Virus record (IMG/VR): IMGVR_UViG_3300005805_000045
Location: 32,001-96,000 of that record
Direction: 5' to 3' (one strand)
Source of the DNA: a virus
DNA: 64,000 nucleotides
The notes beneath the pieces were generated by a model. That model was not told where the DNA came from and made no database searches. It was given only the letters and a program-made list of their open reading frames with translations. Numbering within the stretch: the first letter of the stretch is position 1; each line of letters begins with the position of its first letter. Made by a program: the position numbers and the translations under genes. This document shows, piece after piece, positions 1,910 to 32,124 of the stretch.

Positions 1910-3610
1910 TTACTTTGGTAATGATTTACCGAGAGCACGGACATATGCATTCATTGGTCCTTGCAATTCTTCTGAGATCATGGATCTCCCATCAGCATCT
2001 TCAACATTATCAAGTGAAGTTTGTGCTGTTACTGTGGATGGGAAATAGCTCTCTTTGAGAGTATGGATCTTGCGAGCATACTCGTCAGTTGAGTTGAAAT
2101 CAATGTTTTCAGCAAGAGCGAATAGCTTGTCTGCTTGAGTGTCAGTTAGACCACCACAAGCACCTCTAAGAATTTCATACTTCTTAGATTCAGCAAGCAT
2201 CTTGTTGAGAGAAACATTGCGTTCGATTTCTTCGTTTAGCTTACCTTCAAGGGCATCGACCTTTTCAGCAAGACCTTCAACGATGGAAACTTTTTCTTCT
2301 GGAACATCGATATAATGTTCAGCGAATAGATTACGAAGACCTGAGATGAAGTCTTCAGTTAGTTCAGAACGAAGGCCAGATTCGATAGCAACTTCATTTT
2401 CTGCGATCCATTGTTCAACGACATAGTTGAGATAGTCATCAACTTGTTCAGTAAGTTGATCCATGATAGCAGAAACTTCTTCCTGAAGTGATTCAGCATA
2501 GGCTTCTTCGATTACAGAAAGTTCTTCTTGAAGTCTGGTATTGACAGCAGATTCGAAGATAGTTTCAGCTTTTACACGGAACTCTTCAGAGAGTTGTTCA
2601 CCGTCTAGAAGAGCATCGACATGTTCTTTTAGTCTATCATGAGCGAGTTGCATTGTTTCAGAATTTTTTCTGTTGTCTTCTTTATCTTCTTCTGAAGGTT
2701 TGAATTTAGATTTTCTTGCAGTTGCAGCGAGACGACGTTCAGCTCTTTGATGAACCATGCCTAGTTTCTTTTGACCTTTTTCTGTATCACCAACTTCATT
2801 GAGTTGTTCTTCTTCAGAAACAATTTCGAAGTTCTCTTCGATAGCTTCAGCAATTTGTTCTTCTGAATAACCTTCTTCAAGCATGGCATCAATGAATGCT
2901 TCTAGTTCTTCGGAAAGTTCGAAGTCTTCTTCAATCCAATTATCGTAAGAGGACTTTCTTTCCTTTGCTTTTTTTAGGGTTGTCTTTGCTTTATCAAAAG
3001 CGTTCATAGCTCTGCCATATCCTTTTGGATCTTCAGTAGCATTCATAGATGCGGCGTCAAGTTTATTTGCTCTTATGCGTTCTGTTGTTTCTTGTCTTTT
3101 TGTGCCATAACGACGAACTTCATCAAGAGCTTCTTCTTTCATCTCTTCTTCGTCTTCATCATCTTCATCATCTTCTTCTTTTTCAGCTTTTTTGGCTTCT
3201 TTGATTTGACGATAGAGTTCTTGAAGTTTCTTTTTCTTATCTTCTTCGTCATCTTCCATTTCTTCAGCCATAGAAGTCTTCTTCATTGGCTCTTGAGGAA
3301 CAGCAGATACGCCTGAACGTGATGAATCTTTCTTTGTTTTACCAGCAGCCCGAGCGCCAAGATTATCAGTGGGTGCACCTGACTCAGGTGTTTGCCCACC
3401 AAGATCATCAGCATCTCCTACTGGAGGCATAGAGCCTGGATTTACAAGACGACCCTCAGCGCCACGTGAATTGGGGCGAAGAGTTGCCATATTTGGTGTC
3501 ATTGACTTAGCGCCACGATCAGGATCTCCAGCGTCCATTGGGCTGACGGAAGGAATCATACCTTCTTTCATCAAGATCGCCTTCGCTGTTTCTGTTAGAG
3601 ACTTACCCAT
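1910..3610 (-). CDS. gp22: prohead core scaffolding protein (unusually long)
   Basis: LSEEFRVKAETIFESAV, VDDYLNYVVEQW, EDFISGLRNLFAEHYIDVP; between gp21 and gp23. Confidence 0.93.
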   Translation of the reverse strand: MGKSLTETAKAILMKEGMIPSVSPMDAGDPDRGAKSMTPNMATLRPNSRGAEGRLVNPGSMPPVGDADDLGGQTPESGAPTDNLGARAAGKTKKDSSRSGVSAVPQEPMKKTSMAEEMEDDEEDKKKKLQELYRQIKEAKKAEKEEDDEDDEDEEEMKEEALDEVRRYGTKRQETTERIRANKLDAASMNATEDPKGYGRAMNAFDKAKTTLKKAKERKSSYDNWIEEDFELSEELEAFIDAMLEEGYSEEQIAEAIEENFEIVSEEEQLNEVGDTEKGQKKLGMVHQRAERRLAATARKSKFKPSEEDKEDNRKNSETMQLAHDRLKEHVDALLDGEQLSEEFRVKAETIFESAVNTRLQEELSVIEEAYAESLQEEVSAIMDQLTEQVDDYLNYVVEQWIAENEVAIESGLRSELTEDFISGLRNLFAEHYIDVPEEKVSIVEGLAEKVDALEGKLNEEIERNVSLNKMLAESKKYEILRGACGGLTDTQADKLFALAENIDFNSTDEYARKIHTLKESYFPSTVTAQTSLDNVEDADGRSMISEELQGPMNAYVRALGKSLPK

Positions 3611-14376: not shown

Positions 14377-14798
14377 TTGCTCTGTTCTTTGATCTGCTTG
14401 AGTAGGTCCGCTGTGGTCCCAACGAAGACTGCCTTTTCCACATTGATGGCACCGTCAGGCTGTGACGGTTTGCCCTTGACTTCCTTGAGTTCCTTGGTCT
14501 TCTTTTGAAGCTCATACAGGTCCTTGGTCACGTCGGCAATGGTCTTCATCATGGTGGCATAGACTTCATAGGCACGAGGTGATTCGGCCTCGGAAGCCAG
14601 TTTCTGCATGTCGTCCATAGCAAGATTGCCTTTGCGAATCAACTCACGAAATGTGTTGCGGCTCAACTGATAATCAGATTCTTGATCAGGCAAATTGATT
14701 TCAACTGGCTTATCTTCAATCTTTGCTGGTGGTAATATCTCAACTTGAGATTCGATACCTAATGCTTTTGCTAATGGATCTTTCATAGTATCACTCAT
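14373..14798 (-). CDS. gp16: terminase small subunit
   Basis: DYQLSR, ESPRAYEVYATMMK, AVFVGTTADLLK. Confidence 0.93.
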   Translation of the reverse strand: MSDTMKDPLAKALGIESQVEILPPAKIEDKPVEINLPDQESDYQLSRNTFRELIRKGNLAMDDMQKLASEAESPRAYEVYATMMKTIADVTKDLYELQKKTKELKEVKGKPSQPDGAINVEKAVFVGTTADLLKQIKEQSK

Positions 14799-15801
14799 TT
14801 ATATTGGGAAACTCTTGAATAGTTGTAGAGTATCCGAAATCATCACCTGGTTCGGCATCGATTGGATCAGGCTCAACAGTAATCTTGACAAGTTTGAGCG
14901 GTGAAGCATCAAACGTTGATATGTTGTAAACAGCATTTGTTGATACTGCTCGAATCGTATTATTGACTTTGAACTGACCTTGAGCACCACCGATTTGAAT
15001 CTTCTTTAGTTCTGGATTCCATTCATTAACAAAACCGTATGCTGTGGCTGTATCGTAGTTATTTCCTTGATAAACAATATCACCGATCTTGAATGTCGAG
15101 TTAGCACCATTGTTGAGATACATCCGAACGATATTACCAGCAACCAGAGATGGATCGTTGAAGATATTGGCAATAGACTTGCGAATGATCTTTGGTGTTG
15201 TGATTGGACCAAAGAAATAACCCTTGACTGTAAATGTAAAGTTCCAGTTTACATACCGAACAGTATCGTAATTGCCCTCATAAGTGACATTCTGTGTGAC
15301 ACTGTTTAGAATGATAGGAATGTCTTTCAAAAATCCTAGTTCAGACACAGGAGTCATAGTAAGTGTAAAGTCAGGATTGAAATATGGCAAAATCTGCTCT
15401 GCTATATGTGTGCCATCGTCAATTGTCTTTGTGTATAGATTAAGTTCAAAGTTTATGTCATATGGCACACCCATGTACTGTGATGAAACTCTGGATGCTG
15501 TATCACCTTTAGCAACACGAAGGAGTGAGTTCTGCTTTCTAGATTGATCATATCCAATGCCAGTGATTTCAAATGACAGTCTTGGTAGAATGTTCTGAAA
15601 CTCACGAAGCAAGTCTGGATCTGATTCAAGACGTGTTACAAAGTGATCTTTGGGTGCATAAACGATAGGAACTTTCCATCTCTTGATTTCATTGTTACTA
15701 TCTTTCTCTGTTCTAATGATTGTGATGTCATTGAACATCGACCCAAAAATAATGACATATTTTCGTAAGAGTCTGTAATAAAAATGTGTATTACCGAGCG
15801 T
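14791..15801 (-). CDS. gp15: tail sheath stabilizer/terminator; homology extends upstream of the ATG at 15738 to an ACG at 15801
   Basis: VPIVYAPK, LPRLSFE, QILPYFNP; upstream in-frame (T)LGNTHFYYRLLRKYVIIFGSMFND matches the usual gp15 N-terminus; AGGAGG 9 nt before ACG. Confidence 0.9.
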   Translation of the reverse strand, partial: TLGNTHFYYRLLRKYVIIFGSMFNDITIIRTEKDSNNEIKRWKVPIVYAPKDHFVTRLESDPDLLREFQNILPRLSFEITGIGYDQSRKQNSLLRVAKGDTASRVSSQYMGVPYDINFELNLYTKTIDDGTHIAEQILPYFNPDFTLTMTPVSELGFLKDIPIILNSVTQNVTYEGNYDTVRYVNWNFTFTVKGYFFGPITTPKIIRKSIANIFNDPSLVAGNIVRMYLNNGANSTFKIGDIVYQGNNYDTATAYGFVNEWNPELKKIQIGGAQGQFKVNNTIRAVSTNAVYNISTFDASPLKLVKITVEPDPIDAEPGDDFGYSTTIQEFPNINE

Positions 15802-16312
15802 TGGAATAACCCTCCTTTCTTTTTTTCCACCAGAGTTTTCTGGCTTCAGACATTTTTTGTTTTTGTTCCATACTTTTCTTTACACCAAGATGAGTTTCTT
15901 TTAGAATATTTCTATGCGCATCAGAAAGTTTTTTTCCTTTATGCTGCAATCCTATTATTTTTTTTCTCTCATCTGTTATAGAGTGTTTTCCTTTATTTGA
16001 TTTAGAAATTTTCTGTTTAGTTTCTTCAGAGTGTTTTCTACCAATCAGTTTTTGTCTTACTTTTTCTATATGCTCTTTTGTATGTTTTCTTCCAGTCTGT
16101 GCTTTTCTTATTGCAACTAATGTTGCTTCAGCATGTGTTATTTGTCCTGATAATGCTTTCCATGCAATTTCATCTTCCCAATGTCCTAAATCTTCCCATA
16201 GTTGTTTATGTAGATTTGCATGTTCTTCCATTGATACTAAAACAATATTTGACTTTTCGTCTGTTCCACCCATATGTTTAGGTATAATATGGTGTTTATG
16301 ATAAATATTCAT
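15791..16312 (-). mobile_element. free-standing HNH homing endonuclease with NUMOD3 repeats (start ATG 16312 preferred over GTG 16369)
   Basis: HKHHIIPKHMGGTDEKSNIV...EEHANLH HNH motif; GRKHSEETKQKIS repeats; GAGGAG SD before ATG 16312. Confidence 0.88.
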
Positions 16313-16369
16313 ATACTGGTGCTCCTCATTAGCATTAGAGTGGATAGAGACTGCAATCTCGTGATCCAC
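16313..16369 (-). promoter_or_regulatory. structured 5' leader (two hairpins) of HNH gene
   Basis: GTGGAT/ATCCAC stem with inner GAGAT/GTCTC stem; second hairpin TGCT/AGCA overlapping the SD. Confidence 0.55.
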
Positions 16370-16375
16370 ATTTTT

Positions 16376-16382
16376 TATTTAT
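16376..16382 (-). promoter_or_regulatory. late promoter of HNH gene
   Basis: TATTTAT on + strand just after the gp14 stop. Confidence 0.6.
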
Positions 16383-16384
16383 TC

Positions 16385-17257
16385 TTATGGTACTCCAAAT
16401 GGATTGCGTTCGGAGAAGTCAATATAACTATTGGCCTCTGATTGTAGAACTCTGTTATCAAAGAGATCATAGTATGGCGACTCACTGAATGTGTTTGTGA
16501 GAACGATTCGCATATTGGTATTTGAATCCATGCCTCTGATATTAGAGTTGTTGGCAAACTCACCTTTGATTGTGTTCAGAGAAATGATCTTGTTGTTTGG
16601 ATCCCAGTTGCTTACTGATGCTGTGGCTGTGGCTGTAGCAAGTGTATTGCCCTGATATACCGTCTCACCAATTCTATAGTTACCAGAACCAGTCATGTTA
16701 TAGTTCAAAGTAAACACAAAATCATCAGAAATCTCGTCAATTTCTTCAACACCTGTGTTCATATCTTCGTTTGAGTATCTGAAGTTCTCGCAACGTATTT
16801 CATAGATGTATGGGAACTTTCTGCCAAGTGTGAAGAATAGCAACTCATCTTCGACGAACTTTATTTCTAGAACCTTATTCATAACAGGAACAAAGAGTAG
16901 ATCACCTTCTCTGGGTCTTCTTGCTATATTTGTTGGTACATACTTATCAAATGTTCTTTTTGCAAGAACAATGTTTGTGTTTTCTCTAATTTCAAGACCA
17001 AACTTTGAAAAGAAGTCACCATCACCTTCGTAGCCATCTACGTTAGCAATATACATTTCCATTTGATAGGCACGTTCGAACTTTGATTGAATATTCTCAC
17101 CAAATATTTGATCAGTTGTATCCCATGCCTCACGAGGAAGATAGTAGATATCATGACCCATGATTTTAATGGACTCGACAAGCACATCTTCATAAAGTCT
17201 TTGTTCGCCTGTGCGATATTTTGGAGAAAAGTTGTTGAAGTAATGGTTTGTGGCTAT
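16385..17257 (-). CDS. gp14: neck protein; homology extends upstream of GTG 17185 to an ATA at 17257
   Basis: ESIKIMGHDIYYLPR, FFSKFGLEI, RPREGDL, FSERNPFG; upstream in-frame (I)ATNHYFNNFSPKYRTGEQRLYED; AGGAG 9 nt before ATA. Confidence 0.92.
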   Translation of the reverse strand: MATNHYFNNFSPKYRTGEQRLYEDVLVESIKIMGHDIYYLPREAWDTTDQIFGENIQSKFERAYQMEMYIANVDGYEGDGDFFSKFGLEIRENTNIVLAKRTFDKYVPTNIARRPREGDLLFVPVMNKVLEIKFVEDELLFFTLGRKFPYIYEIRCENFRYSNEDMNTGVEEIDEISDDFVFTLNYNMTGSGNYRIGETVYQGNTLATATATASVSNWDPNNKIISLNTIKGEFANNSNIRGMDSNTNMRIVLTNTFSESPYYDLFDNRVLQSEANSYIDFSERNPFGVP

Positions 17258-17261
17258 GGCA

Positions 17262-18038
17262 CTAAACTCCTATATTTTTGACTGTGCCCCTAAACCATTC
17301 ATCTCCGGGACATTCTTTACTTCGTTTATTTATCACACCATTGTTCCACCAAAACGATCCCTTTATATACTTTGCATTATTTGGCGGACGTCCTTTCATT
17401 GTAGCACTTGTTTTAGCATTCATTTGCTTTTTCAATTCAGGATCATGCTGTTTGCCATAAAAAGGATTCTTTTCACCACTAAGAGCATCACTAACTTTTT
17501 TTCTATGTTCATCTGATAAAGGACCCAAGATTTTTCCTTTATTGCTTTCAGATATCTTTCTTTTTGTTTCTTCTGTTTTTTTCTTGCCAGTATTAGATAA
17601 CGATCTCTTTGCGATTTGTTCTAGTGTTTGTGGAGATAGTTTTTTGCGTCCCTCTAAATATTTTTTTTGATATTCTGGATCTTGATGAAGTTTCTTAGAT
17701 GCTTCAGATAGTTTTTCACGAACGTTTTTGTTAGATTGATCATCAATGTGCCAATGGCCAAAATGTTTTTTGCTCAAATTATAATATTTAATGCCCAACT
17801 CGTTATCGGCAATTAATTGAAGCCATTTATGCTCTTGTTCCAACAAAACTTCTTTATCAATATTTTTCTGAATAATACGTCGTTTGAAATTTTCTGGTCT
17901 ACGCCTATATGCATCACGCATTCTTCTAGACGAACAGATGTATCCATCATTTATAGTTCCATAGTGACAGCCGAGATAATACATCTTACGCTTGCTGTCA
18001 TACCAAATATAGATAAATCCTGTCTTTTCTTGGCACAT
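17262..18038 (-). mobile_element. free-standing GIY-YIG (Seg-like) homing endonuclease with NUMOD3 repeats
   Basis: GFIYIWYD...MYYLGCH..DGYICSS, YYNL; KKTEETKRKISES, GEKNPFYGKQH. Confidence 0.85.
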
Positions 18039-18069
18039 AATCGGTTCCCATCATAGATATCTTTAGAGC

Positions 18070-18077
18070 TATTTATA
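18070..18077 (-). promoter_or_regulatory. late promoter of GIY-YIG gene
   Basis: Perfect TATTTATA on + strand between gp13 stop and the endonuclease start. Confidence 0.7.
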
Positions 18078-18092
18078 TGCAAAATGCGTCAC

Positions 18093-18836
18093 CTAGCCCA
18101 TAATCATCATTGGGGGTTCTTCATGGGAACTCCGAATCAATTGTTCTAATTCTTGAATCTCTTGAATAGCTTCGTTATAGATTTGCTGTCCGTTCATGGT
18201 AATGCCACCAGGTAGTTGCATTCCACTAAATTTCTTCATGTTATTGCCCCACTGCTTTTTGATATAAGCAGTTGCTAGTTTTTTGAGCAGTCTGTCGTTA
18301 TAGACTTTATTATATGTGTCAGGATCAAGAATGATGAATCCTTCGATAACAACATATTCCAATGCGTCAATCTTTGTGTTCCAGTCCCAATCGATATAGA
18401 GTTTGTTTGAATGTCTATTGAATCTAATTGGAGTCTCGCCGGAGAATAGCATATCCAGTGTTCTGATATGTTGCTGGGTTAGTACATAGTTGACATAAGA
18501 AGTAGAAGTAAAGTCATAAAGCTCATGAAGTCTGAGCTGGTAACGCAGGTCGAACATATTGACTGATGCGTTTGTAGAACCTATCGGAAATATTCGTGTG
18601 ATACCAATAATGTTATCAGGAATTGTGATATACTTGTTTGCTATGTCTTGTTGTGTTATTTGATGGCTGATATACCATCTTTCAACGCCATCAACATGGA
18701 AATCTCTATAATACTGAAAGGCTAGATCAACGGCATCTTCCACTTGCTCATCATCAACGTTTATGTCAAGGACTGGTGCACCTAACTGACGTAGGCACCA
18801 ATCTTTTAGTTGTTCTCTTGTGGCTGGTGATGACAT
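18093..18836 (-). CDS. gp13: neck protein
   Basis: CLRQLGAPVLDINVDDEQVED, KKQWGNNMKKFSGMQLPGGITMNG. Confidence 0.96.
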   Translation of the reverse strand: MSSPATREQLKDWCLRQLGAPVLDINVDDEQVEDAVDLAFQYYRDFHVDGVERWYISHQITQQDIANKYITIPDNIIGITRIFPIGSTNASVNMFDLRYQLRLHELYDFTSTSYVNYVLTQQHIRTLDMLFSGETPIRFNRHSNKLYIDWDWNTKIDALEYVVIEGFIILDPDTYNKVYNDRLLKKLATAYIKKQWGNNMKKFSGMQLPGGITMNGQQIYNEAIQEIQELEQLIRSSHEEPPMMIMG

Positions 18837-18860
18837 TTATTATCCTATTTTTTGCTCGTT

Positions 18861-20039
18861 TTATTTATTATTTATGTTGTTTCGCAACTCATCTATTTTT
18901 TGTTTCCACTTATCTGACATTTTTACGAGTTCCTCATCTAAATCCAGTGGATCGTTTTCAAGTGACAGAATATTAAACAAGTGATTCAATTTCAATGTCT
19001 TATATTGAATGGAATCCTTAGTAATGAACCCATACTCTTTTTCAAAATTGTAAATAAATTCAATGCGTTCGTCCAATGGTGCTGCAAATGGTGACGTATA
19101 CTTTGGTCCGATTATTGGTAGTATGTTGTAATTAGTGACACCCTCGCAAAATCGACCGTTTATCTCTTCGACTTTCTTGATATCTTCGATTAGATTTTTA
19201 TACGACCATCTATTTAAGGTATTTGTGTACCCAAGTTCTACCTTGTTCTTACGACCCTTCATGAATTTTTCCAAGTTTTGAATAGTCTTGTCCCAGTTTC
19301 CTCCACGAGTCCAATTGTACATTTTCCCGGACGAATCCAGACTTATCCTTAATGAAAGATTCTTTAGGTTGTGAAGTATGGTTAACATCTCATCAGAAAG
19401 CTCTTGGAAGTTGCTTAAAAACTCGACATTGACATCAAGCTCTTGTTCTACAATGTGAAGAAGCATTCTCTTTACTTCATTTTGTATTAGAGGCTCGCCT
19501 CCCTTAATTTGAAGTATCTTGAGCTGGGGAAGAAGATCAAAAATCTTCTTCATGTTTTGTTCAGTCGTCCAATGCTTATATTTGACTGGTTTACGGTTGA
19601 ATTTGGTCTTGGCGTTCTGTTTGTCGAACATGAACCATTTTGAACTACATTCACTCTTACACATCAGACATTGTTGATTGCAAAGATTGTTAAAGCAAAC
19701 GTCGAGGTGTTCGATCTTACAGTCGTCTATTTTGAAGTTAGTCGAGATGCCATTCTTTCCGTACTTTCTAGGTAACATATTACGAAGAGAGTTCACAGAT
19801 GAGTTCTCTCTTCTTGTACAGGCAATACAAACCTCGTTCTCTTCGACCTTCATATTCCTGTACTTGATGAAATAATCAGTGTTAAAAAAATCCTGTAGAT
19901 TTTCTATATCATCAATGTGTGGTGGAGTAAGCCCCAGAACTTGTTCCTTGGATATACCACACAGATGTATATAACCCTCGGGCGTGATATGAATACCAGA
20001 CCACATATGCAAACATAAATGTTTCAAATTTTCATTCAT
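18861..20039 (-). CDS. radical SAM enzyme with N-terminal Twitch/SPASM-like Cys cluster
   Basis: CNQQCLMC, GGEPL; N-terminal CLHMW...LCG...CIAC; start 20039 gives TGATG coupling. Confidence 0.88.
   Translation of the reverse strand: MNENLKHLCLHMWSGIHITPEGYIHLCGISKEQVLGLTPPHIDDIENLQDFFNTDYFIKYRNMKVEENEVCIACTRRENSSVNSLRNMLPRKYGKNGISTNFKIDDCKIEHLDVCFNNLCNQQCLMCKSECSSKWFMFDKQNAKTKFNRKPVKYKHWTTEQNMKKIFDLLPQLKILQIKGGEPLIQNEVKRMLLHIVEQELDVNVEFLSNFQELSDEMLTILHNLKNLSLRISLDSSGKMYNWTRGGNWDKTIQNLEKFMKGRKNKVELGYTNTLNRWSYKNLIEDIKKVEEINGRFCEGVTNYNILPIIGPKYTSPFAAPLDERIEFIYNFEKEYGFITKDSIQYKTLKLNHLFNILSLENDPLDLDEELVKMSDKWKQKIDELRNNINNK
18862..18875 (-). promoter_or_regulatory. tandem late promoter motifs upstream of gp13
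   Basis: TATTTAT twice (18862-18868, 18869-18875) on + strand. Confidence 0.5.
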
Positions 20040-30831: not shown

Positions 30832-32124
30832 TTAAGCTGTCCTTATCCATAAACTAACTGTTGACACTGTGTCTTTTGTTGCAAGAACTGTTTGACCTGT
30901 ATAACTACCTGTATAGGTTCCTGAGTATGTAATACCAGCATATGTACCTGAGAAATTTTGAGAATATGTTCCAGAATAGTATCCAGTATAATAACCAGTA
31001 TAGGTTCCAGAATAATATCCATTCAAGAAACCAGCAAAAAATCTTGCATATGCTCCTGTGTAATTTCCTGCATAGGTTCCTGCATATGCACCAGTGAAGT
31101 TCTGAGAATATGTGCCTGTATAATTGAGACCCACATAATTTCCAGAATATGATGGACCAGAATATGCACCAGTGAAAAATCCTGTGTAGAATCCAGTATA
31201 ATTGCCAACATAATATCCATTCAAGAAACCAGCAAAGAATCTTGCATATCCACCAGCATAAACTCCAGAAAATGCTCGTGAATATGATCCTGAATATGAT
31301 GCTGCATAAAAACCAGTATAGGCAGGTACATAAGCACCAGTGTAGTTTCCAGAGTATGATTGATTACCCAGTGAATGTCGTGTATCAGAGAAAGCTTGTC
31401 CTGCTAGTACCCACGTTCCGCCTGTTCCTGGAGCAGCAGTTTGCAGTGCATATTTGCCGATGCCAGTTGTTCTGATATATTTTCTTAGCAGCGGTGCCAT
31501 ATTCTTGATCTGAGTATCAGACATTTCAATCAAACCTGATTTATCTGTCTTATACGTTAATGACCGAATTGTTGTAGGTGTTGTTGTGTTTGCTGTTTTT
31601 TGCCACAAATATGTATTGGAACTTCCAACGAATCCGATGTTAGCTTTGTCTGTAATTGTTGCTCTTGAAATCCATGTACCATCAGAGGGGGATGTGGGTT
31701 GCAGCTTATACATCCCAATACCACCGTTGACTAGAGTATTGGCTGTTACTGATATGATATAATTTTCTAGGTCAGTGTTTGCTTGAGGATTGAGACCCGT
31801 GCTAGAATCGTATTGCATAGGTCTGGAATTTGCATTTACATCTTCAGAATATGTTTGTAAGTTTTGAAAGAACTCGTAGGTTTCAGAGACGACTTCAGTT
31901 CCAACAGGATGAGCACCAACAGCATGATTTCTGTATGTATCGGTAAATGTACCAATCAGAGTCATACCAGAATTAGAACCAGGATTCACATAAAGCATAC
32001 CAGTCAATTCATCTACGACAAACTGCTCTAAGATTCTATGTGAGATATACGCAATCTCAGTGTTCGATATTTCTTTCAGAGAAACAGGAGTTGTTAAACT
32101 GTCAGCCTTGAGCGGTCTTGCCAT
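30832..32124 (-). CDS. putative virion fibre protein with C-terminal [YF]-x-G-x tetrapeptide repeat
   Basis: About 155 aa such as YSGNYTGAY...YTGFYTGFFTGAYSG...YSGTYTGSYTG; N-terminal part has two related domains. Confidence 0.7.
   Translation of the reverse strand: MARPLKADSLTTPVSLKEISNTEIAYISHRILEQFVVDELTGMLYVNPGSNSGMTLIGTFTDTYRNHAVGAHPVGTEVVSETYEFFQNLQTYSEDVNANSRPMQYDSSTGLNPQANTDLENYIISVTANTLVNGGIGMYKLQPTSPSDGTWISRATITDKANIGFVGSSNTYLWQKTANTTTPTTIRSLTYKTDKSGLIEMSDTQIKNMAPLLRKYIRTTGIGKYALQTAAPGTGGTWVLAGQAFSDTRHSLGNQSYSGNYTGAYVPAYTGFYAASYSGSYSRAFSGVYAGGYARFFAGFLNGYYVGNYTGFYTGFFTGAYSGPSYSGNYVGLNYTGTYSQNFTGAYAGTYAGNYTGAYARFFAGFLNGYYSGTYTGYYTGYYSGTYSQNFSGTYAGITYSGTYTGSYTGQTVLATKDTVSTVSLWIRTA
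31012..31249. repeat. 40-bp near-exact direct repeat (31012-31051, 31210-31249) in the Y-x-G region
   Basis: ataatatccattcaagaaaccagcaaa[a/g]aatcttgcatat encodes YARFFAGFLNGYY twice, 198 nt apart. Confidence 0.85.

Follow-up and report, generated by a model that had tools for sequence, protein, structure and literature searches.

Probable near-cognate start codons of gp14 and gp15 behind free-standing homing endonucleases in a T4-like phage from lake water

The window analyzed here, 64,000 nucleotides (nt) of IMG/VR record IMGVR_UViG_3300005805_000045 (positions 32,001 to 96,000), is part of the complete 163,885-bp genome of a T4-like phage from lake water in which the gene for the neck protein gp14, lying directly behind a free-standing homing endonuclease gene, has ATA where its relatives have ATG. 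The genes in question are on the minus strand of the window, whose coordinates are used throughout, in the order gp13, a 54-nt spacer, an endonuclease of 258 amino acids (aa), gp14, an HNH-type endonuclease of 173 aa, and gp15. The assignment of gp14 (16385–17257, 290 codons plus TAA) was based on matches to the Pfam family T4_neck-protein (PF11649, E=4.5e-32), to PHROG (460/679) "head closure Hc2" (E=5e-71), and to T4 gp14 in the PDB (E=1.7e-24). Translation of gp14 very probably begins at the ATA (17255–17257), and gp15 has an ACG in the same setting behind the second endonuclease. The explanation that we favor, at a probability of about 0.6, has three parts: initiation at the near-cognate codons, their transmission as the boundary of a mobile endonuclease cassette, and immunity of the resident allele to the endonuclease through the altered target site.

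The translation start of gp14

The 5' end of gp14 reads TAG(17272–17270) GAG TTT AGT GCC ATA(17257–17255) GCC ACA AAC CAT TAC TTC AAC AAC. A Shine-Dalgarno (SD) sequence, AGGAG (17267–17271), lies within the last codons of the endonuclease, whose open reading frame (ORF) ends in ATA GGA GTT TAG, and is separated from the gp14 ATA by the 9-nt spacer TTTAGTGCC. The initial annotation had given these letters, together with an in-frame TAG just upstream and the lack of any ATG, GTG, or TTG for 24 codons, and all of this was found again on direct reading: the TAG (17270–17272) closes the gp14 frame 5 codons ahead of the ATA, and the first canonical codon is a GTG (codon 25, 17183–17185). It had also named MATNxYFN as the usual beginning of gp14, which is what relatives have, and the ATA aligns with their ATG. 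If initiated at the AUA, gp14 would begin (M)ATNHYFNN like its relatives, with the N-terminal peptide (M)ATNHYFNNFSPK. The accuracy of the letters was examined in Logan contigs of runs from three studies (X1, X5, X10; a 2016 lake study, possibly the source study, a 2024 drinking water study, and a 2022 freshwater study), which show 0 differences over 17216–17295, and contigs of two of the three studies also cover the ACG of gp15. As five independent IMG/VR contigs carry a homologous ATA as well, sequencing error is excluded. The runs listed as containing the locus include none of RNA.

If gp14 instead started at the next canonical codon (the GTG at 17185 or the ATG of codon 33), the upstream ATNHYF... 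segment would be a decaying relic. The GTG is the first in-frame ATG, GTG, or TTG, but it has no SD (-0.9 kcal/mol) and is not conserved, the codon being GTA or GTC in L003 and L002, two of the related loci described below. In L021, where the start position is ATC, the frame has no canonical start in 60 codons, and L002 has its first at codon 33. Moreover, the segment that a codon-25 start would skip aligns with the solved T4 gp14 from query residue 14 on, and codons 2–25 are under purifying selection among ATG-less alleles, with pS (synonymous) of 0.40 and pN (nonsynonymous) of 0.03 between the window and L002, and pS of 0.6–1.0 vs pN of 0.2–0.35 in other pairs. A protein starting at the GTG, an outcome that the initial annotation had allowed for, is thus very improbable, and the codon was rejected as the real start.

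Still less credence is given to recoding or artefact (a +1 frameshift fusion from the endonuclease, read-through of the TAG from ATG 17302, an intron, or a base-calling error), which could appeal to the SD-like AGGAG just before the endonuclease stop and to the in-frame ATG lying 10 codons ahead of the TAG. GUU-to-UUU, however, would slip poorly, and fusion or read-through does not generalize, since the frame of L002 holds TGA TAG without any ATG upstream and no start of any kind precedes gp15. The phage tRNA scan (Glu, Arg, Asn, Asp, plus a CAT tRNA) contains no suppressor or initiator-like tRNA, and an Rfam scan of 14500–19000 for a group I intron or another structured RNA gave no match, with just 54 nt before the endonuclease ORF and 4 nt after it. 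The CAT tRNA was considered as an initiator and rejected; it pairs G1 with C72, lacks a GGG/CCC stem, and is elongator Met- or Ile2-like. Since the downstream start, intron, tRNA, and fusion routes are all unsupported, near-cognate initiation remains.

In such initiation, host formylmethionine tRNA (fMet-tRNA) would read the gp14 AUA at 17257–17255, as in ordinary near-cognate starts, aided by the SD that the endonuclease gene carries at its 3' end. In E. coli reporters, AUA, AUC, and AUU give 1–2% of AUG, and GFP initiated at ACG carries an N-terminal Met by mass spectrometry (bioRxiv 10.1101/063800). In extracts, AUA in an optimized initiation region reaches 0.56–0.95 of AUG, and a T4 rIIB mutant with AUG changed to AUA retains about 15% of activity (PMC5499595).

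SD strength was expressed as duplex energy and compared with the 178 ATG genes of the genome. The AGGAG of gp14 (-6.8 kcal/mol) falls in the top 14% of these genes, and the GGAGG of gp15 (-12.1 kcal/mol) is stronger than in all 178, so that ACG, the weaker near-cognate codon, has the strongest SD in the genome. This fits a strong SD that would compensate for a near-cognate start. A genome scan for near-cognate codons with a strong SD, in which 12 or more open codons separate the codon from the first canonical start, returned gp14 and gp15 as the sole convincing cases; a match at an ATT two codons upstream of the gp15 ACG was discounted, being overlapping and with a spacer of just 3 nt, and two further matches look spurious. 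Local RNA folding around the gp14 start is not unusual (z=-1.2).

Start codons at endonuclease junctions and the mobile cassette

The phage itself is known from metagenomes only: gp14 reaches at most 38% identity in GenBank phages, with no close cultured relative, and a megablast of the region against GenBank phages gave no match. Relatives were sought by searching IMG/VR with gp14, which yielded 80 loci with the conserved gene order gp13-gp14-gp15, cited here by number. The junctions between gp13 and gp14 comprise 31 naive ones of distinct sequence, in which gp13 is followed directly by gp14, and 16 with an endonuclease or a recognizable remnant of one. All 31 naive junctions have ATG GCN ACN..., as a rule behind a weak SD and 3–8 nt past the end of gp13. 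Defective starts, either near-cognate or frameshifted, occur at 10 of the 16 insert or remnant junctions and at 0 of the 31 naive ones (Fisher p=1.5e-6). Non-ATG starts thus track with the endonuclease, a correlation that the initial annotation had proposed to check, and are not equally common in endonuclease-free relatives. The start position is ATA in the window, L002, L010, L011, and L028, ATT in L016, L051, and L232/L233, ATC in L021, and TTG in L266, while L008 and L017–L020 keep an ATG but carry one extra base behind the seventh codon (TAC TTT C AAT AA). A normal ATG despite an insert is found in L012 and, with HNH-type inserts, in L030, L034–36, L042, L075, and L077. In a gp14 tree, defective starts appear in at least 6 separate places, each beside naive ATG sisters (for example, L011 beside L014, and L008 beside L004, L005, and L007). 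The median SD energy is -6.8 kcal/mol for defective-start alleles, -4.1 for naive ATG alleles, and -4.4 for ATG alleles with an insert (p=1e-4). Among cultured Sinorhizobium phages, homologous endonucleases are followed by ATG (phiM7) or TTG (phiM12) starts, and loss of the start is therefore not universal.

Behind their HNH-type inserts, L030 and L034 (about 2995–3010) have ATA at the ancestral start position and ATG as the next codon (ATA ATG ACA AAT), which may be a repaired start, giving M-TNHYF, one residue shorter; L051, a sister allele of these two, has no endonuclease, a 44-nt gap, and an ATT start. In L008:2985–3030 and L017–L020:2985–3030, MATxHYF and the remainder of gp14 are in different frames, the latter in +1, and the zero frame stops two codons later. 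These frameshift-type alleles, which come from five metagenome contigs and represent two diverged lineages, combine their ATG with a very strong upstream SD (-12 to -13 kcal/mol) and adjoin the endonuclease or its 127-nt remnant. A switch of a Ser codon from TCC to AGT suggests that the short frame is translated, and the alleles are candidates for a +1 frameshift at UUU-C.

The endonuclease upstream of gp14 (17262–18038) has a GIY-YIG-like N-terminus (GFIYIWYD..MYYLG, recognized by eye), NUMOD3 repeats, and a C-terminal DNA-binding part. It had been annotated initially as a GIY-YIG homing endonuclease; the homing endonuclease stands, on matches to NUMOD3 (E=2.9e-15) and to PHROG 314 "homing endonuclease" (E=6e-19), whereas the match to the GIY-YIG Pfam domain is sub-threshold (13.6 bits vs a cut-off of 22.6, covering profile positions 2–71 of 78). 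A phiM12 homologue, 35% identical, is annotated as GIY-YIG_SegABCDEFG; a sequence search of the PDB with the endonuclease gave no match, and a single-protein search with it returned 3 loci only. The gene is intergenic and polymorphic among near-identical relatives: it is absent from L003, whose gp14 is 95% identical, and from an allele that co-occurs in run X5.

In X5, a contig of the coexisting endonuclease-free allele joins 18097 to 17245, with 19 letters in place of the 851-nt insert, and reads ...GG|A TAA GAT ATG GCA ACG AAT|CAT...; the flank that it shares with the window is unbroken for 708 nt. Besides the insert, the two alleles differ in the last wobble base and the stop of gp13 (TAA vs TAG) and in all four third positions of gp14 codons 1–4, and L003 shows the same pattern of flank differences from the window. 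The substitutions are clustered within about 12 nt either side of the insertion point, and the first four gp14 codons (ATA GCC ACA AAC, 17246–17257) form the right-hand edge of the polymorphic cassette. On its left-hand side, gp13 ends in GGC TAG in the window and in GGA TAA in the nearest endonuclease-free relative. The T4-type late-promoter box TATAAATA (18070–18077) lies within the cassette, past the gp13 stop and ahead of the ATG of the endonuclease; it is a motif match whose promoter function is presumed, and the window has 8 exact matches to it (454, 1896, 7428, 18070, 26381, 45538, 51193, 56566), all on the minus (coding) strand.

The 3' boundary of the cassette recurs in other genomes. 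The junction GGAG-N3-TAGTGYC-ATH-GC (or TAGGAGTTTA.. in L232) is common to gp14 backbones that are 40–90% identical, and also to endonucleases with differing bodies, namely that of the window, a canonical GIY-YIG enzyme in L021 that shares its C-terminal DNA-binding part, the unrelated Seg-like enzyme of L010, and another GIY-YIG enzyme in L232. The Seg-like endonuclease (L010:2333–3004), at the gp13/gp14 junction, has the same end of ~25 nt as the enzyme of the window, which suggests that one endonuclease replaced another in place. As the gp14 of the window is closer to that of naive L003 (95%) than to that of ATA-bearing L002 (90%), the cassette has moved between backbones. Between the sisters L011 and L014, a G-to-A change in the start codon is the sole change in the first 18 nt. 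Remnants that have lost the endonuclease retain the SD, the spacer, and the non-ATG start (the gp14 ATA of L002 and the gp15 ACG of L010), and the L008 remnant, which is of the frameshift type, retains the SD-bearing 3' end. On these comparisons, the ATG-to-ATA change is part of the 3' boundary of the cassette and not a private mutation. The cassette would then consist of the gp13 stop changed to TAG, the late-promoter box, the endonuclease ORF, the SD with its spacer, and the ATA, and its boundary would be copied into recipient genomes along with the endonuclease.

The gp15 start behind the second endonuclease

The initial annotation had pointed to the same pattern at gp15, and the sequence there agrees: GGAGG (15811–15815), within the last codons of the HNH endonuclease, is followed by a 9-nt spacer and ACG (15801–15799) CTC GGT AAT ACA CAT TTT. 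The gene (14791–15801) encodes the tail sheath stabilizer according to profile matches, and in relatives it begins with ATG CTA or ATG TTA (ATG CTA GGA AAT...), the ATG usually overlapping the gp14 stop (TAATG). The first canonical start in the window is an ATG at 15738, which has no SD. Compared with L002, 3 of the first nine bases of gp15 differ and the next 12 are identical. The same GGAG..CCA ACG junction is found in L010, where the endonuclease is deleted.

This second free-standing homing endonuclease (15791–16312, 173 aa) was recognized by profile matches, including NUMOD3, and by the HNH-like motif HKHHIIPKHMGG. Its ORF starts with ATG at 16312 behind GAGGAG and ends in codons that overlap the first three of gp15. 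In IMG/VR it has no close full-length relatives, the best match being 57% identical over the nuclease half, so the gp15 case is drawn from two lineages, those of the window and of L010. The leader of the gene (16313–16385) contains a near-consensus late box (AATAAATA) and a putative hairpin over the GAGGAG.

Why the ATG was lost

Under the favored explanation, the invariant ATG region of endonuclease-free alleles would be part of the target of the enzyme, and the altered start, together with the neighboring silent changes, would make the resident allele uncuttable. The strong SD would restore enough expression for a protein that is needed in few copies per virion, and the same logic would hold for the gp15 ACG behind the HNH endonuclease. 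Target-site immunity is a plausible driving force, with which the clustered substitutions, the G-to-A change between L011 and L014, and the remnants that retain a non-ATG start are all compatible. Several observations weigh against this explanation. L012 has an ATG beside an apparently intact related endonuclease, and HNH-type inserts at the same junction also leave the ATG in place, so coexistence with an endonuclease does not always call for a changed start. Relative to L003, a cluster of 4 changes within 12 nt is modestly unusual (p=0.013), another region of the gene is equally dense, and the silent changes could be co-conversion passengers from a diverged donor. Finally, E. coli and T7 initiate very poorly at ACG (bioRxiv 10.1101/063800, PMC5499595).

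It is also conceivable that a mildly harmful start mutation near the cut site spread by co-conversion with the endonuclease, assisted by its drive, and that the essential gene now depends on the SD of the cassette, making clean loss of the cassette lethal. The ATA does travel with the cassette junction across diverged backbones, and all deletion remnants (L002, L008, and L010 at gp15) retain exactly the SD-bearing 3' end. However, ATG disruptions that are recurrent and differ from one another, in at least 5 cassette types vs 0/31 naive junctions, argue for directional selection, and one A-to-G reversion would be enough to release the phage if the ATG allele were not cut, a proviso that brings immunity back. 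We regard such hitch-hiking as an unlikely explanation on its own; it is possibly compatible with immunity, the two not being mutually exclusive.

Neck proteins are needed in few copies, and it has to be considered whether a weak start was selected to lower gp14 output again after the insertion had added a late promoter and an SD, an idea that the initial annotation had offered as its second inference. The TATAAATA box is indeed within the cassette, and all the variants found (ATA, ATT, ATC, TTG, and the +1 frameshift) cut initiation or yield. For this purpose a weaker SD would suffice, yet the defective starts are paired with the strongest SDs and the ATG alleles with inserts have ordinary weak ones. 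Dosage tuning also leaves unexplained the silent changes in the last codon and stop of gp13 and in gp14 codons 2–4. It is accordingly disfavored and appears rather improbable.

Other loci, known systems, and implications

The remaining gene of the junction is that of the neck protein gp13 (18093–18836), which was delimited from the ORF list, by tblastn to the 80 related loci, and by flank comparison. Elsewhere in the genome, a paralogous GIY-type endonuclease (G000:C1:14221–14905; in L082, 1722–2405 and 1111–1728, minus strand) overlaps the start of a P-loop kinase-like gene, which begins GTG CTG, while the endonuclease-free L085, 98% identical, has ATG ATA. The GTG start of uvsW behind a fourth endonuclease was set aside as uninformative, as naive relatives also have GTG. 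Outside the window (G000:C1:155380–156555), a Vsr/DUF559-like endonuclease ORF interrupts the DNA polymerase gene; the downstream part of the latter reads ...LAKKVSL and then CTT TAA C, with the continuation of motif B (NSAYGALGN) in +1, and AAGGTG with a 3-nt spacer precedes the CTT, as in prfB. ARAGORN reported a permuted transfer-messenger RNA-like gene (tag ANDNAPFEMALAA) and the CAT-anticodon tRNA, elongator Met/Ile2-looking in its prediction (G000:C1:98757–99169 and 148676–148751).

The mobA/gene 60 cassette of T4 is the closest known system and a precedent for endonuclease immunity by recoding. There (Bonocora et al. 2011, via bioRxiv 10.1101/2022.08.31.505936, PMC5009743), the endonuclease is mobilized jointly with a 50-nt bypass element, which protects against MobA. 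The two systems agree in that a free-standing endonuclease travels with an altered piece of an adjacent essential gene, that the alteration needs non-standard translation, that the cassette is co-inherited across diverged backbones, and that loss of the endonuclease frequently leaves the recoded site beside it in place. They differ in that the present system involves near-cognate initiation (ATA, ATT, ATC, ACG), with a +1 shift in some relatives, in place of the 50-nt bypass, and in that the host gene is unsplit; protection from cleavage, shown for MobA, is what we infer here. The seg and mob endonucleases of T4 (Edgell, Gibb and Belfort 2010, PMC2988022) resemble those of the window in lying between conserved essential genes, in combining a GIY-YIG (here GIY-YIG-like) or HNH nuclease with NUMOD3-type modules, in having a late promoter of their own (here deduced from the box), in their presence/absence polymorphism between close relatives, and in co-conversion of the flanks. 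Unlike in that account, which is silent on loss of the downstream start codon and mentions start or initiation codons just twice, in unrelated contexts, the downstream start is here systematically degraded, and literature searches for start-codon loss downstream of homing endonucleases found no report. Initiation at a single-base variant of AUG, read by the initiator tRNA and with context-dependent output, is shared with the AUU of infC and pcnB and with the AUG-to-AUA change of T4 rIIB (PMC5499595); those cases are either autoregulatory or laboratory mutants, whereas the codon is here tied to a mobile element, takes several forms, and affects genes for virion structural proteins.

A broader reading, which we put forward tentatively and hold to be possible rather than probable, is that endonuclease cassettes in these T4-like phages as a rule gain protection by altering invariant DNA in essential genes, which would be tolerable only through non-standard translation, and that sacrifice of the start codon is a general, undescribed strategy of immunity and addiction. 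Its forms would be ATA, ATT, ATC, and ACG starts rescued by the SD of the cassette, and +1 frameshifts (gp14 of L008 and L017–20, and motif B of the DNA polymerase).

For annotation, these results mean that essential virion genes may have no canonical start, in which case gene callers will truncate or miss them; here gp14 would lose 24 residues and gp15 21. The system amounts to a few dozen bases and bears on the rescue of near-cognate starts by SD sequences and on start codons as recognition handles for endonucleases. For the biology of selfish elements, it extends a single classic example, T4 gene 60/mobA, to initiation codons and probably also to +1 frameshifts, in that the host gene apparently carries a translational handicap which the endonuclease either imposes or selects for.

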